A stretch of DNA of 35,618 bases from Desulfobacteraceae bacterium (GCA_011389735.1 JAABTS010000050.1:1-35618), one strand, 5' to 3'; numbered from the stretch's first letter, positions 6,301 to 35,618 are shown. Program-made: numbers and translations. The notes: a model not told the origin generated them from the letters alone.

Positions 6301-8914
6301 TAAGATCCAGCGGCTGAACGTTCACGGAAAACCGGTAATCACCGAACCGGATAATATCGGCGCCGTCCTCGAACAATTCTTTCCGGTCTTTGAGCCGCCG
6401 GACGGTGTCTTCCCGCATCGTTTTCAGACGGGATTGAATATCGTCCGCCTTGACCGTATCGTCAAGCTCCCGAAGCTGAACGATAATGTCCCGGATTTTC
6501 TCGATCATCAGATCCGATGCGAAATACCCGTTGATTTCATTGATGTCCGTCATCCCGTCCACGCGGTTCCGGACGCCTTTCAAAATCCGCTCCGCCGCGC
6601 TCATCAACGCGTTCGCACGCTTGTTCCGGGCTTCCACAAGGGACAGCTTCCGGGTTTCAAACGCATGATACAACGCTTCCCGCTTTTCAGACAATTGGAC
6701 TATAAAATCGTCGAACTCGACAAACGCCCCCTCCAGTTCTTCAAGCTGTATCATTAATTTGGTCAGATACTCATCGCATTTATCAGGCGTGTCGCTGATA
6801 TCCAGATAGTTGATCACGCTCTGGTTCAACAGCTTGATCCGGGCGTTGAACCGCTCCACGCCCTCAACGCTTGCAAGGCTTTTACGCTTGTTTTTAAGTT
6901 CCGCCTTGACTTTGTTGATATCGGAATAGATGGCGGAAATATCGTCGATAATTCGGGTGGTTTGAGTGGAATCCTCGATCTTGAGGTTACTGACGATATC
7001 GATCAGCATTTCCAGATCCCCCGAAACAGCGCCCACGTCTTCCTGAATCCGGTCAGCGTCCGCCACACGGTCGCATTCCACGATCCGCCCCCGTGTCTCA
7101 ACGACTCGATTTACATATGGCTTCAGAGCCTCATCGCTCAATAAAAATTCCACACAGGCCGAAGAAACCCGGCCGGTCGCATCCTTGACTCCAGCCTCCA
7201 GAGACTCCACAGCATCCAAATCCACATACCGGAGATCCTTCAAAGATATGATTTCACCCCGAATATTCCGCAATTGGGAAAGCCGTTCCACAAAATGATC
7301 GATACGGTTCATCACGCCGAGATCGACCGACTTGAGAATTTCGCCGGCCCGATCGGAAACCTCCCGAACCCGGCTCTCAGTACCCTTTTTCAGCCGGACG
7401 ACCTTTTCGAACGCATCAATCGCCCCGCTCGCCGTACGCTTGATTTCGAGAACCGTTTCCTTGATATTGAACGCTTCGGGCCGTTCGATCCAGAAATAGG
7501 CGTCGGCGATATCCGTGGATTTTTTGACTATGTCATGGTACAGCCCCGAATAGGTGTCCTCCTTGTTCAAAAGCCTCAACAATTCGTTGCATTCGGCCAT
7601 GCATCGCACAATGTCCTTGTTGCCGACTTTGTAAAGAAAGGCGTCTTTTTTATCCGCCCCAGGAAGCAGGCCCGTAATAAAAGGCGTTTGCATGATCTGA
7701 ACCACATGATGCTTCGTCGGTTCGGGATCGCTGCGCAAAAGCAGCATTTCCCCGCTGTCAAAAATGGAAAAACCGCTGCACACGATCGGCGTATCCACTT
7801 TTTGATCGATAATATTATAGTGCAGCAAAATGTGATCCCCGGTCTCCCGGTTATAAAATACATAAAGAAAATCTTCGCCGTTGGACGACGCCGCCCGGCG
7901 CTCGAAACGCATATCGGCCAGGCCGCTTTCGAATTGCTTGAGTTCGCCGGTCTGAAGATAATATCCGTTGGAAAACATGAGCCCCTGGCTGTCCGGGAGA
8001 AGCACGCATGCGTTTTCGATCTCATCGACACGGCTCACCGCCTGAGTTTTTTCATTGAAGATATAATATCGAAACGCATTTTCCTGGTAAGGCCGGATTC
8101 GCACAAGAATCATGTTACCGACAAAAGCGTAGTAAATTTCAGCGTCATCGAGAGTCTGATCCTTGTTCTCGACGGCTTCCGAATACACCCCGTATCCGTC
8201 GGCCGTGTTGTCCTCCACCTTGAAAGTGATATCCCCGCCGACAGCCTCCACAAACAACCGGTCGTCCAGGGAAATATGAGGATGCACGCCTGCCCGGTGC
8301 TGGTCCCTGGTCGTCCGGGTCCAGGCGAATTCGTGCTGAGCCGGAAACTTGAATTCATGGTCGCTCCGGTTGTCCAGATACACCGGCCCCGATTCCTGCA
8401 TGGCCCATTTGAACGTTTTGATATCAACGACGGATTTGCCGATATTGAAAACCATGAAAAGATGGGGCCCGATGATCGAAAATTTCGCGAACCGCGTTTC
8501 CTTGTAATATTTATACAAGTCCTTGAAATCGGCCTCGAACCTTCCCGAATCCAGAATATCGACCGGCTGTTCGCGAAACGAGCCGTCACGGTATTCGTAA
8601 ACCGCAAACACATCGGATATCCCCGTCTCGGATTTCAGCCCCATACGCACGTTATACCCGAAAATAAACAGATTCCGCCCGATTGAAACCATGTCACGGG
8701 GGATGCAATTGTTTTGGGTTGAAATCCGTTCGGTCGACAAAATTGTGGTTTCGATAGAGCCGAAGATATCCTTGCGGGACTGATTGAGTTCACCCAGGCT
8801 GGATTGCAGGGCGTTCCCCTGAGTCAGCAGCCGGTTGCGGATAATCTCGTAAGCGCCGCCGTCCAGAGCAATCCTTGATTCATCCTGTGCTTTCACATCT
8901 TCATTGCCGGCCAT
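3362..8914 (-). CDS. Giant multidomain protein (~1850 aa): N-terminal ~1250 aa of unknown fold, MoxR/AAA_5-like AAA+ ATPase core, ~270-aa linker, C-terminal 3-4 ankyrin repeats
   Basis: Walker A LLISPPGYGKTTL; Walker B/MoxR-like MLYLDDIQHLNPEFLQKF; sensor-1 VVVVMAGNPYTE; arginine-finger region KIPDMLANRA (nt ~4600-5060). Ankyrin repeats PLMAAAVHNNPNVVDFLL / SALMIAASKGRVDVVKVLLARGANVN / TALMWAEKKGNDGIARLL (nt ~3362-3775). A coiled-coil-rich segment spans aa ~560-900. The track ORF begins with TTG at 8920. The ATG at 8914 has a GGGAG SD 6 nt upstream and is preferred. Confidence 0.85.
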   Translation of the reverse strand: MAGNEDVKAQDESRIALDGGAYEIIRNRLLTQGNALQSSLGELNQSRKDIFGSIETTILSTERISTQNNCIPRDMVSIGRNLFIFGYNVRMGLKSETGISDVFAVYEYRDGSFREQPVDILDSGRFEADFKDLYKYYKETRFAKFSIIGPHLFMVFNIGKSVVDIKTFKWAMQESGPVYLDNRSDHEFKFPAQHEFAWTRTTRDQHRAGVHPHISLDDRLFVEAVGGDITFKVEDNTADGYGVYSEAVENKDQTLDDAEIYYAFVGNMILVRIRPYQENAFRYYIFNEKTQAVSRVDEIENACVLLPDSQGLMFSNGYYLQTGELKQFESGLADMRFERRAASSNGEDFLYVFYNRETGDHILLHYNIIDQKVDTPIVCSGFSIFDSGEMLLLRSDPEPTKHHVVQIMQTPFITGLLPGADKKDAFLYKVGNKDIVRCMAECNELLRLLNKEDTYSGLYHDIVKKSTDIADAYFWIERPEAFNIKETVLEIKRTASGAIDAFEKVVRLKKGTESRVREVSDRAGEILKSVDLGVMNRIDHFVERLSQLRNIRGEIISLKDLRYVDLDAVESLEAGVKDATGRVSSACVEFLLSDEALKPYVNRVVETRGRIVECDRVADADRIQEDVGAVSGDLEMLIDIVSNLKIEDSTQTTRIIDDISAIYSDINKVKAELKNKRKSLASVEGVERFNARIKLLNQSVINYLDISDTPDKCDEYLTKLMIQLEELEGAFVEFDDFIVQLSEKREALYHAFETRKLSLVEARNKRANALMSAAERILKGVRNRVDGMTDINEINGYFASDLMIEKIRDIIVQLRELDDTVKADDIQSRLKTMREDTVRRLKDRKELFEDGADIIRFGDYRFSVNVQPLDLTIVQRDGEQVFHLAGTDFFETIDHPEFIKTRSVWGMEVPSENEDVYRGEFLALRMLKDAESRGDSAISEFAEASEEELQGMVRRFMGPRYAEGYSKGVHDHDCAKIVQALADIHVKIGLLRFHPRVRALAGLFMLLGFSDEEQAEKSLMLEKLRSFGMISGIFPSRGEQARYIAEISDRIYEFVRRTGLFSVESAPDAATYLFLELSSGAERFSVSKEAFELSEGFAVSLKSGLYLQKFKTAREKLAGSPLSVFEMIRDWMEAYILSLGREELLDYLDEASVLVFDPPEVVQKDMADVDMTRESDGMLGDHRVIQNGRYHLNYYRFMDKTARFESEILPLYNRYQDLKRKLIDEMREGLRLNEFKPRILTSFVRNRLINKVYLPLIGANLAKQIGVAGEGKRTDLMGMLLLISPPGYGKTTLMEYLANRLGVIFMKINGPAIGHTVTSLDPKEASNAAAREEIQKLNLCLEMGDNVMLYLDDIQHLNPEFLQKFISLCDAQRKIEGVYKGKSRTYDLRGKKVVVVMAGNPYTESGEKFKIPDMLANRADTYNLGDIIGDTREDFEMSYLENALTSNPVLGKMSSRSQADVYSIIRIAKTGDREEVEFEGNYSGEEIDEMVSVMKKMITVQEVILKVNKEYIRSAGMADEFRTEPPFKLQGSYRNMNRLTEKLVPIMNDSELKTLLLSHYESEAQTLTTGAEANMLKFLELTGWMTDTQRERWEEIKKTFQKNQMLRGMDESNPVTHVVAQLSAFQDGLESIRGALSAGVDQFMRFYQARGSETREDDREERSSGPVQTMVSFSEETLSRIDRLAKEIKSISVVPVQAAGVDPHYAERIKNSAPIAPSTLRTIHKSRKNDFYLAIKNGNIEQLGELLRSGRDVNARTPEKATPLMAAAVHNNPNVVDFLLDQGAMIDAVDRDGYSALMIAASKGRVDVVKVLLARGANVNLLDNNGMTALMWAEKKGNDGIARLLRGKPN

Positions 8915-8960
8915 ACCCAACTCCCTGACGGTTCAACGTCCGCATGCTTTCGAAAACAAG

Positions 8961-11727: not shown

Positions 11728-12104
11728 AAAACTTTTCCTTTCACGATATAAGGAGGGGATGTTGTCAACGCCGATTCAAAAGAACCGGCCGACTATAAAC
11801 TTTCAGATATTCCATCGCAGTGGGTTTTCGAACGGATATACACGCCCTGGATAAACCATCCGGAAATTTTTTCATACTCCAGTTCGTACTCTTGCTCAAG
11901 ATTTTCAGAACACCCTTGCAATTTTGAACACGAGCAAGCATGAAACGGCCGGTCTTAAAACCAACCTCCTCAAAACCAATATCTCGCCCTCTTACAAATT
12001 TCTGAAATATAACATCCGAAAGCCTATAGCATGACAGAACGTCGATTGCAAATATCGGGTTATTATCGCCCTCAGAAAATAAAATTTCACCAGGTCGCCG
12101 TTTC

Positions 12105-12140
12105 GGAGGATACGAATCGTATGATCCCAGGGCCGCCGCC
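12105..12140 (+). repeat. Copy 1 of a conserved ~36-nt intergenic element (GGAGGATACGAATCGTATGATCCCAGGGCCGCCGCC), reverse orientation relative to copies 2 and 3
   Basis: Its reverse complement GGCGGCGGCCCTGGGATCATACGATTCGTATCCTCC aligns almost base-for-base with 21067-21110 and 24329-24367. Confidence 0.8.
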
Positions 12141-12371
12141 TTGTGAAATTGAATTCGGGCCTGGTTCTAACTTCGGCCACGACCGCAGGTTGAATAATCT
12201 CACCGCAGAGACGCAGAGTTCGCAAACGTTAAATAAATTAAATGTTTTACGTTCTTTGCCCCTTTGCGGTGGAAAAATATTGGCCGGAAATGGAATCAAG
12301 CCCTTGAATTTCTGAAAACCCGTATCGTTTTTCAACATCCTTCCGGAACCTTGATTTCGAAACGCAACAGC

Positions 12372-13124
12372 TTATTGTTTCACAACGACACGGGTGTCGC
12401 AGATACGGTCATGAAGCGTCCTTTTCTGATCGTCAAACGCCGCAATCAGGTATCCTATGCAAAGTATGAAATAGCTGATATATTCAGCTAAATGCCGACC
12501 GAAAGCCAGTTTAAAACCAACCGGGGTTCCGTCCGAACGAACGATTCTCAGGCGGCACGCCATTTTTCCGGGAGTCGCTCCGTGTTTTCCAACAAACCAG
12601 GTTGAATAACCCGCTGCAATGACCATTTGCAATAAAAACGTCACTGCTGGAATAATGAGCGCAAGATCGCTTTCATAGGCTTCCAGAGTTTTCATCGCCA
12701 TCGATCCGGACACCCATGATAAAGAAGCATCGACTATCAGCAAAATGATCCCGTCGATGAACTTGGCGGCGAATCTGATCAGGAATCCGCCGTATTCCAT
12801 GATTCCCGGGAGCGGCGCTCCTTCGCGGACTTTCTGGATAAACAAGGGCTTGCAAGAACCGCATACCCAAAGTTCCTTGAAAGGGATCATTTCCGATTCC
12901 GGAAACAGGTTCCCGCATTCCGCGCAGGTTCGCATATCCGATTCTTCCGCCTCGACTTCGGGTTCAATGGTTTCGACATAATCGCCGAATTTGATCCAAT
13001 GGTCAAGGCCCGACCGCCATACCAGGGTGTCTGATTGAATTGTTCCGTCGGCTACAAATTGGTTGAATTCGTCTTCGGTCAACGGTCCGTATTGTTTCCC
13101 GGATAAGGCGTAATACCAGTTCAT
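12372..13124 (-). CDS. RDD-family membrane protein with N-terminal GYF-like (DUF4339-type) domain and a CxxC...CxxC zinc ribbon
   Basis: 250 aa; WYYALSGKQYGPLTEDEF...TLVWRSGLDHW (GYF-like); CAECG...CGSC; the RDD core is hydrophobic with the conserved R...D...D pattern in the C-terminal half. SD AAGGAG. Confidence 0.75.
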   Translation of the reverse strand: MNWYYALSGKQYGPLTEDEFNQFVADGTIQSDTLVWRSGLDHWIKFGDYVETIEPEVEAEESDMRTCAECGNLFPESEMIPFKELWVCGSCKPLFIQKVREGAPLPGIMEYGGFLIRFAAKFIDGIILLIVDASLSWVSGSMAMKTLEAYESDLALIIPAVTFLLQMVIAAGYSTWFVGKHGATPGKMACRLRIVRSDGTPVGFKLAFGRHLAEYISYFILCIGYLIAAFDDQKRTLHDRICDTRVVVKQ

Positions 13125-13226
13125 GTGGATCTCCTTGAAAAGCAGTTCGGTAATTCTGGGGGCATAATACAGACCTGCGAGGTTTTGAAAACCTCGCAGG
13201 TCTCAATTGTGTCCTTGGAATTAGCA

Positions 13227-14324
13227 TCATTGACTTCCAGACAGCCATTCCCGTTCAAAAGTGCGCCATTCGTCCGGATCTGTCGTCCAGCCGGCGTAAA
13301 CAGCGATTCCGAACATATCCAAACGGGACGGCTCGATTGATTGAAGCCCCATTTGAATTCCGTAAATCGCCGATTCTACATTTTCGGCTTCGGGGTGAAA
13401 TCCCTTGCTTTTATTTTCATAGGAAGGGATTCCCATGAACAACAGCACATTCGAATCCAGTACGGTTAAAAGCCGACTTGTCTGACGGCTCACGAGGGAG
13501 GAATATATCCAGTCGTAAGGAATGGCCGTATCATACATCATGACGGCGGCCTGATCGACGATTTCGGCGATTTCCCGGTAATAATCTAGTTTCCAGAAAC
13601 CGCCTGTTTTCATGAATGCTCTTGCGAGTACGTTGGCGCCGGCGAACGGCTCCGGCTTCTCGCAAGACACGGAGAGAATTTTATCGGTTTTGGAGGTTAT
13701 CCGTCGGGCTCGTTTCAATAGATCGATAAAATCCCGGTTCCCGGTGTAAATCGGTTCGATGTTGAAATGAACTCCGTCGAACCCGAGATCTAAAAAAATA
13801 CGGGCGGTGTTTACAATTTCACGGCGTATCCCCATATCGGACAGATTCAGAGGGCCCCCGCCTGCTTTTTCGATCTGACCGATCCATGCATGCATATTGA
13901 TCCGGCTCGTTCGGCTTTTTATCCGGGAAACGAGTTGAGCTGCAAAGGGATATTTTTCAAGTTCGATTTCGCCTTGAGCGTTCAACGGCCCTACATGAAA
14001 ATAAATGTCCGTAATTTTAAACCGTTCAGCCGTTTCGATCAATTGATTGTAGACGGCGTACTCGTGGGATTTACCTACCCAGTCATGTCTCGCCCACATG
14101 GCGTTTCTTCCTTTGGAGCCGAATTTGACCGAAGGCCCGGATCTGTAAATATAATAAGTGTAGGACGCGCCGCTGAAAACCAGCGCAATCAGAAAAATAA
14201 ATCCCGTCAGGAGGGCTTTGACCCAAGATTTCAAGATTCCGTCACCTGCTTTTTTTTTAACCTCCGCTGCTGTAAAAGCATCTGTTTTACCGGCCCACGC
14301 CGCCGCCCGGGCCTGGAAAACCAT
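13227..14324 (-). CDS. Membrane-anchored putative glycoside-hydrolase-like TIM-barrel protein (GH18-like, catalytic motif degenerate)
   Basis: N-terminal signal anchor (LLTGFIFLIALVFSGASY). LGFDGVHFNIEP resembles the GH18 DGxDxDWE motif but reads D-G-V-H-F-N-I-E. The track ORF begins with TTG at 14330; the ATG at 14324 is preferred. Confidence 0.45.
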   Translation of the reverse strand: MVFQARAAAWAGKTDAFTAAEVKKKAGDGILKSWVKALLTGFIFLIALVFSGASYTYYIYRSGPSVKFGSKGRNAMWARHDWVGKSHEYAVYNQLIETAERFKITDIYFHVGPLNAQGEIELEKYPFAAQLVSRIKSRTSRINMHAWIGQIEKAGGGPLNLSDMGIRREIVNTARIFLDLGFDGVHFNIEPIYTGNRDFIDLLKRARRITSKTDKILSVSCEKPEPFAGANVLARAFMKTGGFWKLDYYREIAEIVDQAAVMMYDTAIPYDWIYSSLVSRQTSRLLTVLDSNVLLFMGIPSYENKSKGFHPEAENVESAIYGIQMGLQSIEPSRLDMFGIAVYAGWTTDPDEWRTFEREWLSGSQ

Positions 14325-14400
14325 TATCAAGTCAAGCAGTTCGAGATGAATTTAAAATCAACGTCGCCGGAAAATCAGCTATTGTCGAAGTCTCCGAAAA

Positions 14401-15888
14401 TTACAATGAAGACAGCAAGTCACAGAACAATCTTACTCCAAACCCCGTGCCGCCGGGATTGACGTATGATCCGGCCTTTGAAACATATGCAGGGCCGGCG
14501 ATATCGAGATGCGCCCATTTGGCGTCCTTGACGAATTCGGACAGAAAAAGAGCCGCAATGATAGCTCCCCCCCACCCGGTGTCGCCTACATTTTTGATAT
14601 CCGCCACATCGCTTTTGAGTTTTTCCCTGTAATCGTCCACGATGGGAAGCCGCCAGCAACGTTCGAAAGTCTTACGCCCCGACCGGACCAACGCCTCCGC
14701 AAGCTCGTCATCCGAACTGAAAACACCGGCGACATTTTCTCCCAGGGCCGCCAGGCATGCGCCCGTCAACGTCGCGATGTCGATCACGATATCGGGCTTA
14801 TAAGTCTTGACTACGTAAGCCAGGGCGTCGATGAGAATCAGCCTGCCCTCAGCGTCGGTGTTTAAAATTTCCACGGTTTTTCCGCTGTAGGCGCGGATAA
14901 TGTCCCCTGGACGGGCGGCGTTTCCGGAGGGCATGTTTTCCACGAGAGGAATCACGCCGATCACCTGCACGTCAGGTTTCAACCGGGCGGTCGTAATCAG
15001 CGTGGCGGCGACGGCGGCTGCGCCGGCCATGTCGATTTTCATGTTCGACGACGACCCTCCGGGTTTCAGGTTAATGCCGCCGGAATCAAAAGTGACGCCT
15101 TTTCCTACAAACGCAATAGTCTGTTTCGGCGTCTCGGGCGAGTATGATATAACAGCCATCCCTGGTTTGCTCAGGCTACCGGCCGCCACGGCCAGGATAG
15201 CATTGAATCCGCCTTTTTTCAAATCCGCCGAATTCATCACGGTTACATCGAGTTCTTCCTTTCTACAGGCTTGAGCTATTTGTTCGATGAACTGCTCGGG
15301 ACGTTTGTCATTGGGCGGCGTGGAAACCCAGTCCCTGGCCATGATGGTTCCTTCACAAACGGTCTCGACCTTTTCGATCAGCGACCGGTATTTTTTCACA
15401 ATCGTGTTGTTGGATATCAGATCGATTTTGGAAACAGGCGCGTCTTTTTTCTCGCTCTTATACACATCAAATATATGATTGCCGAGAATCGCCCCTTCCG
15501 CCATCGCCGTGACCACGGATTCCGCGTCCGCTTCGACTCGCGAAAAAGCCGGAGCCATCAGCGCCGCATCCTTGATTTTTTTCTTGATACACAGTTTAAT
15601 CGCCCTCCCCGAAAATGACCGGAATGTATCCACATCAATTTTTTCAAACTTGCCGATCCCGAGAAGAATGATTCGTTCCGCATTTATTCCGGATGGATTG
15701 TAAAAAATGATGTCCTCATCCTTGCGGCCCTTGAAATCGTCATAGGCGGCGGCTTTCTTTATGATGGAAAGCACCCCCGGACGTGTATGGATATCTTTGT
15801 CTTCGCAAACAGGAATGACCAGCGTATCGATTCGTATCTTGTTAAAGTCGATGGATATAAGGTTAAGCACGACAGACTCCTTTTTCAT
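14401..15888 (-). CDS. pepA: Leucyl aminopeptidase, M17 family
   Basis: 495 aa; M17 signature NTDAEGRLILIDALAY, metal ligands (K...D...D...E), and the typical N-terminal domain. Confidence 0.95.
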   Translation of the reverse strand: MKKESVVLNLISIDFNKIRIDTLVIPVCEDKDIHTRPGVLSIIKKAAAYDDFKGRKDEDIIFYNPSGINAERIILLGIGKFEKIDVDTFRSFSGRAIKLCIKKKIKDAALMAPAFSRVEADAESVVTAMAEGAILGNHIFDVYKSEKKDAPVSKIDLISNNTIVKKYRSLIEKVETVCEGTIMARDWVSTPPNDKRPEQFIEQIAQACRKEELDVTVMNSADLKKGGFNAILAVAAGSLSKPGMAVISYSPETPKQTIAFVGKGVTFDSGGINLKPGGSSSNMKIDMAGAAAVAATLITTARLKPDVQVIGVIPLVENMPSGNAARPGDIIRAYSGKTVEILNTDAEGRLILIDALAYVVKTYKPDIVIDIATLTGACLAALGENVAGVFSSDDELAEALVRSGRKTFERCWRLPIVDDYREKLKSDVADIKNVGDTGWGGAIIAALFLSEFVKDAKWAHLDIAGPAYVSKAGSYVNPGGTGFGVRLFCDLLSSL

Positions 15889-16171
15889 TGCCTGATCTTT
15901 TCATAGCCTTCCGGAAACCAAATCTCAACCTGCTGCTCGCCAGGGACAATACTGTTCTCGTATATCCAGGTCCGACAACGCAGGAGGCAGGGGCAGGGGG
16001 CAGGCTCTTTCATAAGTCCGGCTCCAAACCGCCCCCTGAAACCTGCACCCTTTAACCTTGCCGATTGCAAATCCCCTCGGATAGTGAGGAGGTTTTCGTT
16101 CAGCCCCAAGTTATCTGAAAAGCTACAGGTTATATCATTTTTGGATTCCTTGCAATACTCAAGGACGCGTT

Positions 16172-16645
16172 TTACGATCTCAGCGTCGCCGAAAGCCGCA
16201 ATGGATTTAAAAACAACTCCAGGGCGGAAACAATGTCACAAAAAACCAGGTCGGCCGACAAAACCGCTTGAACCGAGGCCCCCTCCTGCTGGATGACTGC
16301 AATCCCCAGAGCGGATTTCGCCAGGGAGGAACGATCGTTGACCCCGTTTCCAATAAAAGCCAGGCGATCAAGCCCGATTCCGCGAATGTAGGATAATTTT
16401 ACAGCATCCTGATTTTCTTTCGGGATAACGAAGAGCTTCACCGGCGTGTGATCGAACAACGCCGCCGCGCTGCCGAAAGTATCCGCCGTCAGCACGTGGA
16501 TGTTAAATTGAGCCGACAGCGCTTCCAGTATCGCCGATGTTCCTGGAATCAGATTTCCGTCCACGGCCAGCGTGCCGTTTAAATCGAGTACGATGTGATC
16601 GATGTTCAGTTGTTTGTCCCGGCCCGGGACATTGAATTTCGGCAT
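16172..16645 (-). CDS. Small HAD-superfamily hydrolase (soluble P-type-ATPase-like, COG4087-type)
   Basis: 157 aa; motif I IVLDLNGTL, motif IV GNGVNDRSSL. SD AAGGATGG. Confidence 0.75.
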   Translation of the reverse strand: MPKFNVPGRDKQLNIDHIVLDLNGTLAVDGNLIPGTSAILEALSAQFNIHVLTADTFGSAAALFDHTPVKLFVIPKENQDAVKLSYIRGIGLDRLAFIGNGVNDRSSLAKSALGIAVIQQEGASVQAVLSADLVFCDIVSALELFLNPLRLSATLRS

Positions 16646-16734
16646 TGTTCCATCCTTTGGGTTTTTGTGTCAATCTCACCCGGTCTTAGGGCAAGCAAGA
16701 CGGTAGTTGTGTTCTGTGGATTCCCTAACATCCT

Positions 16735-18282
16735 TTACGTTTCAATCAGAGAAGTTCCCGTCATTTCTTTTGATTTTTCAACTCCCATGATATCGAGCAT
16801 GGTCGGGGCGATATCCGCAAGCTTGCCTTCTTCCCGCAGCACCGCATCCCGCATGTCGTCGTTGACCAGTATAAAGGGGACCGGGTTGAGGGTGTGGGCC
16901 GTGTGAGGCGAACCGTCCTCTTCCTTCATCATTTCCGAATTTCCGTGATCGGCGGTTATCAGCACCGTTCCTCCCGAATCCAGAATTTCAGGAACTATCC
17001 TGCCCACACATGAGTCGACTGTTTTACAGGCTTCCACCGCCGCTTCGAGTACGCCGGTATGCCCCACCATGTCCATGTTTGCAAAATTGAGAACGATTGA
17101 GGCGTAATCTCTTGACCGGATTCTTTCGATCACCGCGTCCGTAACCGCTTCGGCGCTCATGGCGGGTTTCTCGTCATAGGTCGGAATATCCCTCGGCGAC
17201 GGAATTAAAAGGCGGTCTTCCCGCGGAAACGGTTTTTCCGCGCCGCCGTTGAAAAAATAGGTGACATGGGCGTATTTTTCCGTTTCAGCTATCCGGAACT
17301 GTTTGAGACCCTCATTACTGACGATTTCACCGAAAATCCCGGTTAGATCGGCCTTGGAAAAAGCGACGGGCAAGTCAAAGGTTTTATCGTATTGCGTCAT
17401 GCAAACATAATTGGAAAGGGGCGTAAAATTTCCCCGGTCGAATTGATCGAATTCCATCGCCGTAAGAGCGCGTGTAATTTCCCGAGCCCGATCCGCGCGA
17501 AAATTGAAAAAGATCACCCCGTCGTCTTTACCGATCACGCTTTTGGGATTGCCTGAATCGTCGGTGATCAAGATCGGCTTGATAAATTCATCGGTTTGAC
17601 CTTTTTCATATGCCGATTTTATCGCCTGTACAGAATCTTTTGCATAAATCCCTTCGCCTTTGACCATCATCTTAAACGCTTTTTCGACTCGATCCCATCG
17701 GTTGTCCCGATCCATTGCATAATATCTGCCGCAGACGCCGCCGATCCGGCCATAATCGATTGTTTCAACGTGTTCCAGCACCTGCTCGACAAAACCGGCG
17801 CCGCCGTCCGGCGGCGTGTCCCTTCCGTCCATCAGGGCGTATATGTTGGTTTCCGGGACGTTCCGCTGCTTCGCCATGTCCAGCAGAGCGAACAGATGAC
17901 GGATATGGCTGTGAACCCCTCCGTCGGAAACCAGGCCCGCCAGATGAAGCTTGGAACCCTTTCGGGCAACCCTGTCCATCACCTCGCATAACGCCTCATT
18001 ATTGAAAAAAGAACCGTCTCGTATCGCCAGGTCGATTCGCAACAGATTCTGATAGACCACGCGGCCGGCGCCGATATTGAGATGCCCGACTTCCGAGTTC
18101 CCCATAAACCCTTCCGGAAGCCCGACCGCTTCTCCGGAACAGTGTAACCGCGTTGTTGGATAGATCTTTTTCAAACGATTCAAATTTGGCGTTCCTGAAA
18201 GGTAGACCGCGTTGGAATCGCCGTCAGGAGCGATCCCCCATCCGTCCAGGATCATTAGCATACACAGCGGGCGTTTAGACAT
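16735..18282 (-). CDS. gpmI: 2,3-bisphosphoglycerate-independent phosphoglycerate mutase
   Basis: iPGM hallmarks: MLMILDGWGIA, SGEAVGLPEGFMGNSEVGHLNIGAGR, C-terminal ADHGN metal-binding region. The preferred start is MSKRP at 18282, whose ATG overlaps the rsfS stop (ATGTCTAA). The track ORF extends 50 codons further upstream into rsfS and is unlikely. Confidence 0.95.
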   Translation of the reverse strand: MSKRPLCMLMILDGWGIAPDGDSNAVYLSGTPNLNRLKKIYPTTRLHCSGEAVGLPEGFMGNSEVGHLNIGAGRVVYQNLLRIDLAIRDGSFFNNEALCEVMDRVARKGSKLHLAGLVSDGGVHSHIRHLFALLDMAKQRNVPETNIYALMDGRDTPPDGGAGFVEQVLEHVETIDYGRIGGVCGRYYAMDRDNRWDRVEKAFKMMVKGEGIYAKDSVQAIKSAYEKGQTDEFIKPILITDDSGNPKSVIGKDDGVIFFNFRADRAREITRALTAMEFDQFDRGNFTPLSNYVCMTQYDKTFDLPVAFSKADLTGIFGEIVSNEGLKQFRIAETEKYAHVTYFFNGGAEKPFPREDRLLIPSPRDIPTYDEKPAMSAEAVTDAVIERIRSRDYASIVLNFANMDMVGHTGVLEAAVEACKTVDSCVGRIVPEILDSGGTVLITADHGNSEMMKEEDGSPHTAHTLNPVPFILVNDDMRDAVLREEGKLADIAPTMLDIMGVEKSKEMTGTSLIET

Positions 18283-18685
18283 CTTCGTCCTCCATTTCTT
18301 TTCCCTCAACGGTTTCCCGATTCCTGTCAGATTCAAAATAGGCGGATACGTCAATCCGTCGGGCGTCGCTCCATAGCCCCTCCAGATCGTAGAAAGAACG
18401 GGTTTCCACATAGAAAACATGAATAATGACATCGCCGTAGTCCAGAAGCGCCCAATGGCCGTCCGATATTCCTTCGGCGCTTAACGTGTTAACCCCTTGA
18501 TCCTTCAAATGTCTGCGAACATGGTCGGCGACGGCTTTCACCTGACGGCCGGACCGGGCGCTGCAAATAATAAAAAAATCGGCCACGGACGTCAGATCTC
18601 GTACATCGAGCGCCACCGTGTTCATGGCTTTTTTCCCCGCAATCGCCCGAAGGTAAATATCAATGGGTGAAACATTGTTTGTCAT
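18275..18685 (-). CDS. rsfS: Ribosomal silencing factor RsfS (Iojap family)
   Basis: 136 aa; DVRDLTSVADFFIICSARSGRQVKAVADHV...GHWALLDYGDVIIHVF is the canonical RsfS core. ATGA overlap with the nadD stop. Confidence 0.9.
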   Translation of the reverse strand: MTNNVSPIDIYLRAIAGKKAMNTVALDVRDLTSVADFFIICSARSGRQVKAVADHVRRHLKDQGVNTLSAEGISDGHWALLDYGDVIIHVFYVETRSFYDLEGLWSDARRIDVSAYFESDRNRETVEGKEMEDEDV

Positions 18686-19353
18686 AAATATAGCCCTTTT
18701 TGAAAAATAAAGCGTTTTACCGGTTCCGGCGTCATACTGTTTATTGGTTTTCCCTGTTTTACGCGCTCCCGGATCCGGGTGGATGAAATGTCGATCAAAC
18801 TGCCTTTAAAATAAAAGATTTGTTTATAGCGGGGATGGTCAAATACGCTTTCACGGTGCGAAAACTCATAGGATTCGGATATGGTGGATTTCAAATAGAA
18901 TTCCAGCCGATTTCGGCCGTCCGTGAGATCCACTCCTTTAATTCCCGGACGCGCCATAACAATAAAATCAATTTCACCGAGCAAACTTCGATACGATTTC
19001 CATGTATGAATTTCCAGCATCGCGTCCAGTCCTATAATGAGGAAAAAACGAGTGCAATCAGGGTATTCGGAATGAAACCATCGCACCGTATCGATTGTGT
19101 AAGACGGCCCCCGGCGCTTCAGCTCGATATCCGAAACCTCGATATGCGCGTTTTCGGCGTCGGCCGCCAGCCGCGCCATTTCCAGGCGGTCATCGGCCGG
19201 CGCGATATTCGATCCGGATTTATGCGGCGGCGCGGCGGCCGGCGTCAATATAGCGCGGTCAAGGGCGAACCGTTCCGTAACTTCCCGAACCATACGGGTA
19301 TGCCCCGAATGAATCGGATTAAAGGTTCCCCCGAACAATCCGATACGTTCCAA
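18682..19353 (-). CDS. nadD: Nicotinate-nucleotide adenylyltransferase
   Basis: GLFGGTFNPIHSGH (the (H/T)xGH nucleotidyltransferase motif) and a C-terminal ISSTRIRE motif. The start is TTG at 19353, preceded by GGTGAGGAGG. Confidence 0.9.
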   Translation of the reverse strand: MERIGLFGGTFNPIHSGHTRMVREVTERFALDRAILTPAAAPPHKSGSNIAPADDRLEMARLAADAENAHIEVSDIELKRRGPSYTIDTVRWFHSEYPDCTRFFLIIGLDAMLEIHTWKSYRSLLGEIDFIVMARPGIKGVDLTDGRNRLEFYLKSTISESYEFSHRESVFDHPRYKQIFYFKGSLIDISSTRIRERVKQGKPINSMTPEPVKRFIFQKGLYL

Positions 19354-19380
19354 GCCTCCTCACCGTGTTTACTTATATTT

Positions 19381-20637
19381 TCAAGTTCGAATCTGGCCGT
19401 TGCCCAGAACCACGAATTTTGTCGTGGTCAATTCGTCCACGCCCATCGGGCCGAACGCATGAAGCTTGGAGGTGCTGATTCCCATTTCGGCCCCAAGCCC
19501 GAGTTGGCCTCCGTCATTGAAACGAGTCGATGCGTTGACCAGCACCACCGATGAATCCACTCGCCGCAAAAAATCTCTCGCTCTTTGATAATCGGCGGTC
19601 ACGATGGATTCCGTATGCGCAGAACCATAGGCGGCTATATGCCGGATCGCCTCATCCATATCATCCACGATTTTGACGGCCAGAATCAGATCCAGATATT
19701 CTTCCGGCCAGTCCGCCTCCACCGCCGGTTCCGCAAAAGGGACATGGTTTAAGGTTTCGGGGCACCCCTTGATTTTGACGCCCGCCGCCTTGAACCGTTC
19801 AGCCATTTGCGGCAAGAATTCGGCGGCCTCAGCAGTGTGAACCAGCATGGTTTCCATTGAGTTGCATACGCCGGGCCGTTGCACCTTGGAGTTGAAACAG
19901 ATTTCTTCGGCCATGGACAAATCAGCCCCCTTGTCCACATACACATGGCAAACGCCTTTGTAATGCTTCAGCACCGGAATTTTCGAGTTTTCCACCACGA
20001 ACCGGATAAGCCCTTCCCCGCCTCTGGGAATAATCAAATCAATGTATTCTTCCTGAGACAGAAGATAATTGACCGCTTCCCGGTCCCGAACGGATATGAC
20101 CTGGACCGCTTTTTCCGGAAGGCCGGCGTCCGCCAGGGCCCGGCTGATGATTTCCGCCAGCGCCCGGTTGGATTCCAGCGCTTCGGAACCGCCCCGGAGA
20201 ATGACCGCGTTGCCGGCCTTGAAACATAGACCCGCCGCATCCACAGTCACATTGGGCCGGGATTCATAGATGATCCCGATCACTCCCAGCGGAATCCGCA
20301 TCCGGGACACATTCAGACCGTTGGGCCGTATCCAGGTTTGAGTCATGGTTCCAACCGGATCTTTCATTTCCTTGATTTCCCGAAGCCCGTCAGCCATTTG
20401 CCGGATAACGGCGTCCGTCAAGGTCAGCCTGTCGATCATCGGGGCCGCAAGTCCCATTTCCCGGGCGCGTTCCAGATCCTTTAAGTTTTCGGCTTTGATA
20501 TACGCCGATTCAGCCTCCAGCAAACCGGCGATTCGAATCAGCGCGTCGTCCTTTTGCGGAGTGGCGCATTCGGCCATTTCGATCGACGCTTTCCTGGCCT
20601 GCTTCGCCGTTTCAATAACCATCGATTCAATATTCAT
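19381..20637 (-). CDS. proA: Gamma-glutamyl phosphate reductase
   Basis: 418 aa; aldehyde-dehydrogenase-fold ProA with the catalytic Cys region ([23 protein letters not shown]...). Confidence 0.95.
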
Positions 20638-20981
20638 GAGCTATTCCCTTCGTCCCGTTTATGTTTCAGCGCTTCGATCAGACAGGCCATCCCTTTGCGG
20701 GTTTCGGGCGTTTGTTCAACGACTTTGAATCCGCTTTGATACAAATCCGCCCTATCGTCCTTACGGCTCCACAAACAGCGCACTGTAAGCCGAATCTGAT
20801 CGGACAGAACCTCGATCCTGATTTTATAATCCTTGCCATCCGTGATCGGCTCCGCACTCATCAGTTTCACGCCTTCCGGATTGATATCGGCTAAATGGCC
20901 GAAAAGCGCGCCGGTATCGTCTTCATAAACCCGGAGGAACCGAACCAGATCCCAACGTTCCATTTTTCGGCTTTCGTTCAT
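20634..20981 (-). CDS. Small PilZ-like protein inserted between proB and proA (possible c-di-GMP-binding domain)
   Basis: 115 aa; N-terminal RKMER (RxxxR) and downstream DINPEGV (D/NxSxGG-like) resemble the PilZ signature. Its stop overlaps the proA start (ATGA), supporting that it is a translated gene. GAGG SD lies 9 nt upstream. Confidence 0.5.
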
Positions 20982-21066
20982 CGATCCAGCCTCGACTATT
21001 GAATTACAAAATTACATTTCCCGGAACGGAAGGCCTGAATACAGGTTTTTCGAAATTGAATGCAGA

Positions 21067-21110
21067 CGGCGGCGGGCCTGGAATCATACGATTCGTTCGT
21101 ATATCCCGGT
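21067..21110 (-). repeat. Copy 2 of the ~36-40-nt intergenic element (ACGGCGGCGGGCCTGGAATCATACGATTCGTTCGTATATCCCGGTG), immediately 3' of proB
   Basis: Aligns with 24329-24367 and with the reverse complement of 12105-12140. Its core GAATCATACGATTC is a dyad. Confidence 0.8.
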
Positions 21111-21134
21111 GAAAAAACCCGCATATAACAGGCG

Positions 21135-23519
<2,385 letters not shown>

Positions 23520-23535
23520 GACACTTTCTCCTTAT

Positions 23536-24045
23536 TTAGTCTTTCTGAATCTGCTCTTCCCGAACCTCGGAATCTTGAACATCTGAATCCGTCTCCGATT
23601 TTTCCGGTTCGGATTCGACGACGGCGTCGTCCGCCGCTTCAGAGATCTCAGCAGGCGCGGCCGCTTCTACCGTTTCCGTTTCGCCCGCGGGCGATGTTTC
23701 CGCTTCTTCGGCGCTTCCGCCCAGCATCGCGTCCCCGGACATGACACCGTCAATCTTTACCAGCGTAAACGGCTGACGATGGCCTTGCTTTCTCTTATAC
23801 CGTTTCCGTTTTTTGTATTTGAAAACTATGATCTTTTTCCCTTTTCCCTGTTCAACGATATGGCCGCTCACTTTCATGTCGTCGAGATAGGGTCTTCCAA
23901 TTCGAACGGTTTCCCCGTCCGAAAAAAGGAGCACTTTATCGAAAGTCACATTGGAGCCGACATCCCCGGGCAATTTTTCCACTCGAAACGAGTCGCCCTT
24001 ACCGACTTTGTATTGTTTTCCACCAGTATTCACCACCGCATACAT
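23536..24045 (-). CDS. rplU: 50S ribosomal protein L21 with ~65-aa acidic C-terminal extension
   Basis: MYAVVNTGGKQYKVGKGDSFRVEKL is canonical L21. The GGAGG SD sits inside the upstream MTEGGNKQ codons, so the start is placed at 24045. The C-terminal tail is rich in Glu/Asp/Ala/Ser. Confidence 0.9.
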   Translation of the reverse strand: MYAVVNTGGKQYKVGKGDSFRVEKLPGDVGSNVTFDKVLLFSDGETVRIGRPYLDDMKVSGHIVEQGKGKKIIVFKYKKRKRYKRKQGHRQPFTLVKIDGVMSGDAMLGGSAEEAETSPAGETETVEAAAPAEISEAADDAVVESEPEKSETDSDVQDSEVREEQIQKD

Positions 24046-24225
24046 TTGTTTATTTCCTCCTTCGGTCATCGGCCGGAAAGCCGGGTAATCATATCAGATA
24101 AAGGTTTTCGGATATTTAATTTCACAAAGCGCCGCGCCCCGGGATAACTTGATTCATGCATGCCGGAGCGTACAACACGGTGAAATGTAACTTCTGAAAG
24201 GCTATATATATCACATAAACCATTC

Positions 24226-24254
24226 ATTATGAACATGCCGACTGTTTATGTCAA
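24226..24254 (-). promoter_or_regulatory. Putative sigma70 promoter of the rplU-rpmA-obgE-proB operon: -35 TTGACA (24254..24249), 17-nt spacer, -10 CATAAT (24231..24226); implies a ~170-nt leader
   Basis: Both hexamers read on the minus strand with a 17-nt spacer. A long structured leader upstream of L21 is plausible for r-protein autoregulation. Confidence 0.4.
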
Positions 24255-24328
24255 GCGAAATTTTTAACCGGAAACGACCTTAATTTTGAATACTATCTCT
24301 TTTCCTATTTTCAAAAAAATTCAACCAG

Positions 24329-24367
24329 GCGGCGGTCCCGGGATCATATGATTCGTATATCCCGGGA
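24329..24367 (-). repeat. Copy 3 of the ~36-40-nt intergenic element (GGCGGCGGTCCCGGGATCATATGATTCGTATATCCCGGG), immediately 3' of gdhA
   Basis: Contains the 7-bp inverted repeat CCCGGGA/TCCCGGG around a 14-16-nt loop with the palindromic core ATCATATGAT. On the transcribed (minus) strand a T7 run follows ~15 nt later. Confidence 0.8.
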
Positions 24368-24427
24368 GACGACGCACTGAATGTAATTTATGAAACGCAA
24401 TGACAAAGATCTCCGGGAGCTTGTTCT

Positions 24428-25777
24428 TTAGACCACGCCCTGGTCGATCATGGCGTTCACCACTTTCAAGAAGCCCGCGATATTGGCGCCCTTTAGATAA
24501 TTGCCGGGCGCTCCATACTCTGTGGATGCGTCCATGCAGGTTTTGTGAATATTTTCCATGATCAGCTTCAGTCGGCGATCCACTTCTTCCCGGGTCCAAT
24601 TCAGCCGGGAGCTGTTCTGTGACATTTCAAGTCCCGATACGGATACTCCGCCGGCGTTGGCGGCTTTGCCGGGGCCGTAGAGAATGTCGTTGTCTAGAAA
24701 AATATCGACACCGTCCGGAGTGGTCGGCATATTCGCGCCTTCGGAAACTAGAAACACCTTGTTGTTAACCAGGTTTTGAGCGTCTTTGGCGTTGATTTCA
24801 TTTTGAGTGGCGCTGGGAAATGCGCAATCGCCCTGATAGTTCCAGAGAGGGTTGAAATCGGCGATCGGATCGATCGGCGTGTAAACCGCCTCCGGATATT
24901 TGTCAACGTATTCTTTGATCCGGCCTCTTCTGATGTTTTTCAAGGTTTTTACATAAGCCAGTTTTTGGACGTCGATTCCTTTTTCATCGTAGATGCAGCC
25001 TGACGAATCTGAAAGAGTGACCACTTTGGCGCCGAGTTCGATGAGTTTTTCCGCAGTGAACTGGGCCACGTTGCCGGAACCGGAAACGATGCAGGTTTTG
25101 TCTTTTATGCTCAGATTCCGAGTTTTCAGCATTTCGACGGCGAAGTAGACCGAACCGTATCCGGTGGCTTCGGGCCGAATCAGGCTTCCGCCCCAATTGA
25201 TGCTTTTGCCGGTCAGGACGCCGGTGAATTCGTTTCGGATTTTTTTGTACATGCCGAACAAAAATCCGATTTCGCGCGCCCCTACCCCGATATCGCCGGC
25301 GGGAACGTCCGTGTTGTGGCCGATATGCCGAAACAGTTCCAGCATGAAACTCTGGCAGAACCGCATCACCTCGCCGTCGGATTTTCCCTTGGGATCGAAA
25401 TCCGACCCGCCTTTGCCCCCGCCCATGGGAAGCGTGGTCAGCGCGTTCTTGAACACCTGCTCGAAGGCAAGAAATTTCAATATGCCGAGGTTGACCGACG
25501 GGTGAAATCTTAAACCGCCTTTGTAAGGTCCGATACAACTGTTCATTTCGACACGGTATCCCCGATTGACCTGAACTTCGCCCCGATCATCGACCCAGGG
25601 GACGCGAAACAGGATAACCCGTTCCGGTTCCACAAGACGCTCCAGAATCTTCAATTGAGCATATTCCGGGTTCTGGTCAATAACGGGTTTCACGGATTCA
25701 AACACCTCGCTCACCGCCTGATGAAATTCACGTTCATTCGGATCTTTTTCCTTAACATAGGTCAAAATATCAAGCAT
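24428..25777 (-). CDS. gdhA: NADP-specific glutamate dehydrogenase
   Basis: 449 aa; GDH signature LPMGGGKGGSDFDPKGKSD, dinucleotide fold GSGNVAQF. Strong SD AAGGAGGAG. Confidence 0.95.
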   Translation of the reverse strand: MLDILTYVKEKDPNEREFHQAVSEVFESVKPVIDQNPEYAQLKILERLVEPERVILFRVPWVDDRGEVQVNRGYRVEMNSCIGPYKGGLRFHPSVNLGILKFLAFEQVFKNALTTLPMGGGKGGSDFDPKGKSDGEVMRFCQSFMLELFRHIGHNTDVPAGDIGVGAREIGFLFGMYKKIRNEFTGVLTGKSINWGGSLIRPEATGYGSVYFAVEMLKTRNLSIKDKTCIVSGSGNVAQFTAEKLIELGAKVVTLSDSSGCIYDEKGIDVQKLAYVKTLKNIRRGRIKEYVDKYPEAVYTPIDPIADFNPLWNYQGDCAFPSATQNEINAKDAQNLVNNKVFLVSEGANMPTTPDGVDIFLDNDILYGPGKAANAGGVSVSGLEMSQNSSRLNWTREEVDRRLKLIMENIHKTCMDASTEYGAPGNYLKGANIAGFLKVVNAMIDQGVV

Positions 25778-25845: not shown

Positions 25846-25970
25846 TTAAGGCATCCTTCATAAACCCAGGAAAGTGGTTGACACTTTCCAAGTCGGGATC
25901 CCGATCCCGATCCCGATAGCGATCCCGATTTCAAAGTGTAAACCGACAGATGAAGGATGCCACATTTAAT
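25846..25970. repeat. MITE/REP-like composite element. Terminal 12-nt inverted repeats GGCATCCTTCAT/ATGAAGGATGCC enclose an 8-bp perfect hairpin (GGAAAGTG-gttga-CACTTTCC) and a (CCGATC)3-4 / GGGATC hexamer tract (25893-25933).
   Basis: All repeats are read directly. The hexamer tract is the reverse-orientation relative of the tracts at 33332-33353 and 35577-35598. Confidence 0.7.
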
Positions 25971-31349: not shown

Positions 31350-31391
31350 AATCAATATTGTACTATTAATATAAAATACGTTACATTTCAG

Positions 31392-31531
31392 GAATGTTGA
31401 ATTTTGAATTTTGAATGTTGAATGTTGAATGTTGAATTTTGAATGTTGAATTTTGAATTTTGAATGTTAGATGTTGAATGTTGAATGTTAAATGTTAAAT
31501 GTTAAATGTTAAATGTTGAATGTTAGATGTG
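31392..31531 (+). repeat. Tandem heptanucleotide array, ~20 units of GAATGTT (variants GAATTTT, AAATGTT, AGATGTT)
   Basis: Read directly; the units are contiguous with no spacer. Lies directly upstream of the XPB-like helicase gene. Confidence 0.95.
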
Positions 31532-31543
31532 AGTCCCCCATTT

Positions 31544-31596
31544 AGCATTCAACATACAACATTCAACATAAATAATTTAGCATTCAACATAACATT
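31544..31596 (+). repeat. Inverted copies of the heptamer (ATTCAACATA x3, i.e. reverse complement of ATGTTGAAT) between the array and the helicase start codon
   Basis: AGCATTCAACATACAACATTCAACATAAATAATTTAGCATTCAACATAACATT can base-pair with the upstream (GAATGTT)n array. Confidence 0.8.
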
Positions 31597-33316: not shown

Positions 33317-33321
33317 AGTTT

Positions 33322-33390
33322 TTGAATCCAAATCGGGATCGGGATCGGGATCGTTATCGAAGGATTCAATTTCGATCCCGATACCGATAA
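33322..33390 (+). repeat. GGGATC hexamer element copy B: TTGAATCC-(AAATCGGGATCGGGATCGGGATCG)-TTATCGAA-GGATTCAA then TTTCGATCCCGATACCGATAA
   Basis: 8-bp inverted repeat TTGAATCC/GGATTCAA around the hexamer tract (33332-33353). Shares the CGATACCGATA tail with copy C. Confidence 0.8.
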
Positions 33391-35469: not shown

Positions 35470-35570
35470 TGGTTTCGTATCGTCTTCCGGTAATCAAATT
35501 TCAGTGCGTTATCGGCCGGAGATATACGAGTTGTATTATCCGGCATCCTTCATTTCTTGTTTACAGTTTC

Positions 35571-35618
35571 ATCAAAATCGGGATCGGGATCGGGATCGTA
35601 ATAATTCGATACCGATAC
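35571..35618 (+). repeat. GGGATC hexamer element copy C (AAAATCGGGATCGGGATCGGGATCGTAATAATTCGATACCGATAC), at the window edge
   Basis: Same orientation and near-identical core to copy B. Truncated by the window end. Confidence 0.8.

Follow-up and report, generated by a model that had tools for sequence, protein, structure and literature searches.

An imperfect palindrome of about 95 nucleotides repeated between genes of a Desulfonema-related bacterium is probably a non-autonomous mobile element

A short motif recurs in nearly identical form between the genes of contig JAABTS010000050.1 from the genome of Desulfobacteraceae bacterium (GCA_011389735.1), and the question raised by this stretch of 35,618 nucleotides (nt), referred to here in its whole length as the window, is what kind of element the motif belongs to. 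An earlier note on the same DNA had described three copies of 36-40 nt and had proposed repetitive extragenic palindrome (REP)-like elements, terminator- or attenuator-type elements, or a shared regulator-binding site. We find that the 36-nt motif is the left inner arm and apical loop or hairpin of an imperfect palindrome of ~93-102 nt, and that the motif family probably consists of lineage-specific, non-coding, non-autonomous palindromic mobile repeats of the miniature inverted-repeat transposable element (MITE) or REP-doublet (REPIN) kind, in a Desulfonema-related host. The family is uncatalogued, yet belongs to an ordinary class of bacterial repeat.

All copy counts and densities given here refer to a single contig of the genome, 35.6 kb long. 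If up to three mismatches are allowed, GGCGGCGGNCCNGGNATCATANGATTCGTAT has exactly three matches in the window, at 12110-12140 (minus strand), 21068-21098 (plus strand) and 24328-24358 (plus strand), confirming the three reported copies in position and orientation, and their similarity is not due to chance (three consensus matches against 0.00 expected from 100 dinucleotide-preserving shuffles). The number of copies had nevertheless been set too low. An nhmmer profile built from these three copies only (c1-c3) added c4 at 24114-24167 (E 1.6e-4) and c5 at 35496-35541 (E 2.2e-3), while a second profile built from all five recovered each of them with E-values on the window of 3e-25 to 2e-16, along with two weak remnants at E about 0.04-0.05. 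At least five copies are therefore present, and the features are as follows:

12068-12162, minus strand: c1, intact, ~95 nt; exact 31-mer match, nhmmer E 3e-25; contains the reported copy at 12105-12140; lies in a 645-nt spacer between the RDD/GYF gene (stop 12372) and a gene for a 205-amino acid (aa) protein (start 11727), with its top strand in the sense of the flanking genes.
21043-21113, plus strand: c2, truncated, comprising the left arm and the apical hairpin; contains the second reported copy, its loop enlarged by TTCG.
24306-24398, plus strand: c3, intact, the best palindrome of the set; exact 31-mer match, nhmmer E 2e-22; contains the third reported copy; lies ~30 nt past the gdhA stop codon, antisense to gdhA.
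24102-24203, plus strand: c4, intact but diverged, ~102 nt; E 1.6e-4 with the three-copy and 3e-22 with the five-copy profile; lies in a 5' leader, between the predicted promoter of the rplU operon and the rplU ribosome-binding site.
35482-35546, minus strand: c5, truncated and diverged, comprising the apical hairpin and the right arm; E 2.2e-3 with the three-copy and 3e-18 with the five-copy profile; begins 13 nt past the stop of the plus-strand gene at 33460-35469, antisense to that gene.
15903-15985, plus strand: c6, a candidate decayed copy that retains the left arm, the centre and some of the right arm; weak matches on both strands (E 0.04 and 0.18).
11798-11850, minus strand: c7, a candidate right-arm remnant (nhmmer E 0.049, profile positions 49-93).

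This amounts to 5-7 copies in 35.6 kb. Although intergenic DNA makes up ~10-13% of the window, all five solid copies and both remnants lie outside Pfam-supported genes. Two spacers hold pairs in the same orientation, with c3 and c4 ~200 nt apart between gdhA and rplU, and c1 and c7 likewise in the spacer next to the RDD gene, where c7 lies ~70 nt upstream of the gene for the 205-aa protein. Partial copies consist of the centre and one arm (left in c2, right in c5): in c2 the GC segment and the outer end of the right arm are missing, with an 11-nt deletion in the alignment and a poor match beyond it. The candidate c6 lies 15 nt upstream of the pepA start, and its left end, AGCCTTCCGGAAACCAAATCTCAAC, matches the family terminus. 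The bias toward the 3' side of genes that the earlier placements implied is not established for the full set, since copies lie just after stop codons (c2, c3, c5) and also just before start codons (c4, c6). The placement of c2 and c3 at the 3' side of proB and gdhA is correct, but not the strand: the GGCGGCGG strand is antisense to these genes, and it is the reverse complement that would be transcribed. Similarly, c1 does lie 3' of the RDD gene, at a core-to-stop distance of 232 nt rather than the ~250 nt given before.

From the outside inward, the unit begins with ends that are AU-rich and inverted (roughly AGGYTTTCRGAAATTWAATTTCAC ... GTGAAATNTAAYTTCTGAAAGGC); a stem rich in GC follows, in which GGCGGCGG is paired with CGNCGMC, then a CCYGGGAT/ATCCCGG stem and, at the centre, the short apical hairpin AUAYG-AUU-CGUAU. 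Two features noticed previously, the dyads inside the copies and the CCCGGGA/TCCCGGG stem of the copy near gdhA, were both found, and near-identity over ~36 nt holds for c1-c3 except in the c2 loop, where 4 nt (TTCG) are inserted; the size of 36-40 nt, in contrast, was an under-call, as the palindrome has conserved outer ends. Alignment of wider flanks places these ends at ~AGGYTTTCRGAAATTWAATTTCAC on the left and at its reverse complement on the right, and alignment of arm against arm shows the two ends to be inverted counterparts throughout the set. These terminal inverted repeats are shared by c1, c3, c4, c2 (left end), c5 (right end), c6 (left end) and the end of contig L082 from a relative described below. 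In folds of 131-nt segments, the hairpin of c1 and c3 extends outward via the GC stem into the AU-rich inverted ends, where c1 has an outer helix of 8 base pairs (bp), AAUUUCAC/GUGAAAUU, then UUUUAUUUUC. A single hairpin spanning the whole element is predicted for c1 (95 nt, -33.1 kcal/mol, z -1.55), c3 (93 nt, -33.6 kcal/mol, z -4.7, with 0 of 200 shuffles as stable) and c4 (102 nt, -28.6 kcal/mol, z -2.25), while in c2 the central hairpin alone folds (z +0.5), as does a central hairpin of 6 bp and 4 bp in c5.

We also compared the window with related genomes. The proB gene is 68-71% identical to those of Desulfonema limicola, Desulfococcaceae HSG8 and similar genomes, and the host is therefore a Desulfonema-related member of the Desulfobacterales. 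A nearer relative is represented by short contigs from run SRR28369931, namely L082 (proB 85% at the aa level) and L091 (rplU 83% at the aa level). The orthologous alignment of the gdhA-rplU spacer is anchored by a predicted promoter:

24226-24254, minus strand: sigma-70-like promoter, TTGACA, 17-nt spacer, CATAAT; best match of the promoter scan, 11/12.

This promoter, predicted for rplU-rpmA-obg-proB (24254-24226), separates c3 from c4 without belonging to the repeat and is kept in the relative, whose L091 spacer aligns across it (TTCGCTTGACATAA ... TTCATAATGA ... GGTTTATGTGATA) and also across the leader and ribosome-binding site (ATACCCGGCTTT.C.GCCGATGACCGAAGGAGGAAA). Within this alignment c4 is missing from L091 at a clean junction, the window reading GTGATA, ~105 nt and then TATCTGATATG, versus GTGATA-CG-CATCAGAAATG in the relative. 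L091 also lacks c3, the distance from the gdhA stop to the -35 box being ~100 nt shorter than in the window; in its place the relative has a short canonical terminator, CGGGCTTCCGCCCG then GTTTCATTGTGTTT, and the corresponding hairpin is degraded in the window. Likewise, c2 is absent after proB in L082. This contig stops 23 nt into AGTCTTCCAGAAATTTAATTTCAC (1574-1597), ~83 nt after proB, and because the sequence there matches the family terminus well, the relative too has the family, at another position. Since the contig ends inside the terminus, as is typical of k-mer assemblers that stop at a multi-copy element, the family appears to be repeated there as well.

Beyond this relative, the family was not found. 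A degenerate 29-nt pattern had 0 matches in 185,579 species-representative genomes, and no copy was detected in 1.2 Mb of more distant relatives' loci or in proB-based loci from 80 genomes plus Desulfonema limicola, HSG8 and GCA_054920775. Plasmid and viral collections gave nothing relevant, two giant-virus hits failing the profile. Rfam, suggested earlier as a check, gave 0 matches at the gathering threshold over the window, and permissive E-values yielded only generic microRNA-hairpin noise, far below threshold, in three spacers; there was no tRNA or tmRNA match. The single pattern match in metagenomes (L001 292-320, Ga0182021_10759687) was judged to be chance, with a profile E of 0.13 over 30 nt only. 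It lies inside an unrelated GC-rich open reading frame (ORF) that also reads ...NGGGPGIIRFVEET..., a curious recurrence of the same peptide reading. A near-top gdhA match, P0122, was set aside as an unrelated GC-rich fused gdhA. In contigs of the same species from two other runs, c2 and c4 are unchanged (c2 is identical in two other samples of the organism, c4 100% identical in L090). These contigs gave no evidence that assembly breaks at the repeats, since c2 is crossed without interruption in L094 and L095 and the end of L090 falls ~7 nt outside c3.

Taken together, these observations bear out, in kind, the earlier suggestion of a REP-like, genome-specific family, with copies that are extragenic, palindromic, hairpin-forming, multi-copy, lineage-specific and present or absent at the relative's orthologous sites. 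We favor the MITE or REPIN interpretation because the family is multi-copy and strictly extragenic, is palindromic over the whole element with shared inverted ends, decays into half-copies, is restricted in lineage and has filled and empty sites. At 93-102 nt the non-coding unit falls within the 50-500 bp of MITEs, and filled and empty sites of the kind that define them are represented by the clean empty site of c4 and the absence of c3 (both in L091) and of c2 (in L082).

REPINs are REP doublets that form hairpins and are mobilized by REP-associated tyrosine transposases (RAYTs) (Bertels & Rainey 2011, PMC3116915; PMC3337134), and their decay into singlets has been described (PMC3116915). The present family resembles them as an extragenic unit of ~70-110 nt whose two inverted halves enclose a short spacer and are predicted to pair into one long hairpin in single-stranded DNA or mRNA, and in its many scattered extragenic copies, singlet-half decay, occasional tandem pairs per spacer and lineage-specific sequence. 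It differs in having no GTAG-type 5' tetranucleotide, typical of RAYT-associated REPs, in arms that have no REP palindrome of their own apart from CCCGGG, and in its host, a Desulfobacterales lineage. REPIN-RAYT systems are described mostly in Gamma- and Betaproteobacteria. Bacterial MITEs include the Correia elements or Neisseria miniature insertion sequences (NEMIS), which duplicate TA, and the enterobacterial repetitive intergenic consensus (ERIC) or intergenic repeat unit (IRU) of enterobacteria. Like the present family, these are intergenic, non-coding elements of ~100-150 nt with terminal inverted repeats, co-transcribed as hairpins able to act on termination, processing and stability, and with filled and empty sites between relatives; they share no sequence similarity with it, and the present family has no clear target-site duplication and is palindromic throughout rather than at its termini alone. 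The REP, palindromic unit (PU) or bacterial interspersed mosaic element (BIME) sequences of E. coli, which PMC3116915 summarizes, match the 36-40-nt palindrome of the earlier note in size and are also extragenic, often just past stop codons, whereas the unit here is ~95 nt long, has no GTAG and forms no BIME clusters of alternating orientation, its two pairs being in direct orientation ~200-300 nt apart.

As a mobile repeat, the family would have arisen by repeated insertion of a ~93-102-nt unit into intergenic DNA, with copying by a transposase whose gene would lie elsewhere in the genome, possibly a DDE enzyme that recognizes the inverted termini or an enzyme of the Y1/RAYT type that recognizes the hairpin in single-stranded form. 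Of the two, a MITE moved by a DDE transposase is favored over a RAYT-type REPIN by the termini, whereas a single-strand route is favored by the absence of clear target duplications and by the strong conservation of the 5' motif with its hairpin. Most copies would be neutral passengers, and co-transcribed hairpins would affect mRNA incidentally. Because c3 sits at the position of the relative's gdhA terminator and is followed by a U-run, it plausibly acts on gdhA mRNA and may terminate or stabilize the gdhA transcript, and c4 would add a 100-nt hairpin to the rplU-rpmA-obg-proB leader. A more specific proposal, which we regard as doubtful, is that the conserved half (5' GGCGGCGG, the CCYGGGAT stem and the AUAYGAUUCGUAU apical hairpin) is the recognition module of an undescribed single-strand-DNA transposase, so that the family would be a vertically inherited replicator of the REPIN-RAYT type with a new motif and with copies already co-opted, as where c3 replaces the ancestral gdhA terminator; the enzyme would then be Y1/RAYT- or IS200/IS605-like and operate in filamentous Desulfobacterales.

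Several observations weigh against a mobile repeat. There is no transposase or RAYT gene among the genes of the window, no parent insertion sequence is known, and neither GTAG nor CTAC occurs in any copy. Target-site duplications are not evident; the empty site of c4 allows one of 2-4 nt (ATA/TA), and c1-c3 have no matching flanks. The z-score of the c1 hairpin is modest, and covariation carries no statistical weight with 3-5 copies, 3 of them intact. The inner left arm is identical at 28-29 of 31 positions in c1-c3, and the right arm and termini are far more divergent. This hints at constraint beyond simple neutral decay; master-copy subfamilies, gene conversion or a recognition-site constraint are possible causes. 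In addition, the relative shares 19 nt with the window at the right-hand edge of c3 (p ~0.01 versus shuffles), so that the right boundary of c3 is uncertain: its outermost ~14 nt (24385-24398) may be ancestral flank rather than element, or the relative may retain a remnant of c3. Finally, absence at orthologous sites may reflect deletion in the relative, as a two-way comparison lacking an outgroup does not fix the direction.

Of the alternatives to a mobile repeat, the one that survives best is that the copies are host-selected, cis-acting RNA hairpins (terminators, 3'-end stabilizers or insulators at operon boundaries) that were spread or kept by function. We consider this unlikely as an account of the family, although parts of it fit individual copies. 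The family resembles Rho-independent terminators, including bidirectional ones, in its GC-rich hairpin and AU-rich flanks, and c2, c3 and c5 start 0-30 nt past stop codons. In mRNA sense, the element is followed by UUGAAUUUUUUUG in c3, UUUUAUUUUC in c1 and UUCAUUUCUUGUUU in c5, and the relative has its short canonical terminator at the position of c3. However, the U-runs (U7 for c3, UUUUAUUUU for c1) lie ~9-10 nt past the GC stem, which is not canonical, the terminator scan flagged partial sub-hairpins only, and c2 and c4 have no such tail. The stems are also far longer than those of typical terminators, the same sequence recurs in 5' leaders (c4 lies within one, and c6 lies 15 nt before a start codon), and the copies are related by descent, not convergence. 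Orientation is mixed, c1 and c7 being in the sense of transcription and the other copies antisense to it, half-copies have persisted in decayed form, and sites are empty in the close relative. Moreover, c2 lies behind a separate hairpin of proB:

21111-21133, minus strand: terminator-like hairpin and U6, GCCUGUUAUAUGCGGGU UUUUUCACC, directly after the proB stop; found by the terminator scan.

This hairpin, between proB and c2, is probably not part of the repeat, because the stretch aligns poorly to the right arm of the family; lying just behind it, c2 is not needed for termination. The terminator or attenuator role proposed in the earlier note is possible only as a side effect for some copies, namely c3 and c1; c2 has the proB hairpin before it, and c4 stands in a 5' leader.

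It is considerably less probable that the copies encode small RNAs or cis-antisense RNAs on the GGCGGCGG strand. G.U wobbles occur on the top strand (in c3 in the apical stem, in c2 in the outer stem), this strand is antisense to the neighboring genes for c2-c5, and the hairpin of c3 is very stable, as its z-score shows. Against this, folding energies of top and bottom strands are similar, neither being clearly better, no promoter or terminator is conserved in the flanks, the upstream sequence being unrelated at fixed spacing, and Rfam holds no match; decay as half-elements and absence at the relative's orthologous sites also speak against RNA genes.

A shared operator of a transcription factor for glutamate and proline metabolism was suggested by the two best-placed copies, which flank gdhA and proB, and by the core dyads ATACGA-T-TCGTAT and ATCATATGAT. 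We give this very little credence, and the regulator-binding site of the earlier note is largely refuted: c2 has its half-sites 5 nt apart instead of 1, the copies stand at the 3' side of gdhA and proB and away from their promoters, further copies adjoin unrelated genes (a helicase-like gene, pepA, rplU and RDD), both c4 and c5 have a degenerate core, and the close relative keeps the promoter at sites empty of the element.

The least credible proposal, a C-terminal coding motif GGGPGIIRFV of a small-protein family, drew on the N, Y and R positions, which are synonymous when read as GGN GGN GGN CCN GGN ATC ATA CGA TTC GT, with three variable positions 3 nt apart on third codon positions, and on ORFs of 83 and 37 codons that cover c1 and c2, but is refuted by c3-c6, with a TGA in that frame in c3 and indels and stop codons in c4, c5 and c6. 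Also against it, three variable sites fall in one codon phase by chance in as many as 1 of 9 cases, DNA similarity downstream survives indels that shift the frame (by 4 nt in c2 and by 2 nt in c1), upstream protein similarity is lacking, no coding frame is conserved across copies and the overlapping ORFs have no Pfam match.

ORFs of 37-94 codons cross the copies on both strands, at 12031-12315 (plus), 12087-12338 (minus), 11992-12225 (minus), 20999-21112 (plus), 20996-21142 (minus) and 24321-24599 (minus), and have no family matches. They are almost certainly not genes, and are liable to be mis-called by gene finders; masking or annotating the repeat family avoids spurious calls such as those at 12031-12315, 12087-12338, 20999-21112 and 24321-24599. 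The repeat family also accounts for several long, seemingly empty spacers in the contig and probably for some assembly breaks in the genome and its relatives, and its filled and empty sites could be used as strain and species typing markers in Desulfonema-like bacteria. Expression may be altered where a 100-nt hairpin now stands at the 3' end of gdhA and within the leader of rplU-rpmA-obg-proB. If the mobilizing enzyme is RAYT-like, the family would widen both the host range and the motif diversity of REPIN-type replicators. Its practical value is modest.

The minus-strand neighbors of the copies, confirmed by Pfam, are the RDD/GYF gene (12372-13124), a PilZ gene (20634-20981), proA, proB (21135-22274), obg, rpmA, rplU (23536-24069) and gdhA (24428-25777). 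Other genes of the window include glutamate-synthase genes, an XPB-like helicase, the plus-strand helicase-like gene, pepA, gpmI, nadD, rsfS, a HigB/HTH toxin-antitoxin pair and an HNH gene. The spacer between a GH18-like gene and the RDD gene holds a near-perfect palindrome of 73 nt (13151-13223, ...GACCTGCGAGGTTTT A AAAACCTCGCAGGTC...), which resembles a bidirectional terminator and shows no sequence relationship to the repeat family.

In addition to the palindromes, the window hosts other repeats. A second intergenic family consists of runs of 3-5 GGGATC/GATCCC hexamers with flanking inverted repeats (25851-25962, 33320-33385 and 35543-35602). Near 25.9 kb the flanks read GGCATCCTTCAT ... 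ATGAAGGATGCC, and GGCATCCTTCAT also stands next to c5, which adjoins this different repeat (GGCATCCTTCAT then (GGGATC)n). The hexamer repeat may have broken the assembly, as the contig ends 16 nt past the last run. At 31364-31590, ~25 tandem heptamers (GAATGTT/GAATTTT/AAATGTT) reach the ATG at 31520 of the XPB-like helicase ORF, with an inverted partner at 31539-31590 (81% complementarity); short heptamer arrays are known in filamentous cyanobacteria and giant sulfur bacteria. A direct repeat of TTGATATTTATTCTTGACGTTTAAC, in two copies at 84-131, lies immediately upstream of the higB-HTH pair (155-750) and is possibly its operator or promoter. On the minus strand, 3362-8920 encodes a 1,852-aa protein with DUF3686 (an ATPase annotated for DNA repair), DUF7902, an AAA+ module and C-terminal ankyrin repeats, and with the HNH and HigB/HTH genes beside it this neighborhood looks like a defence island.

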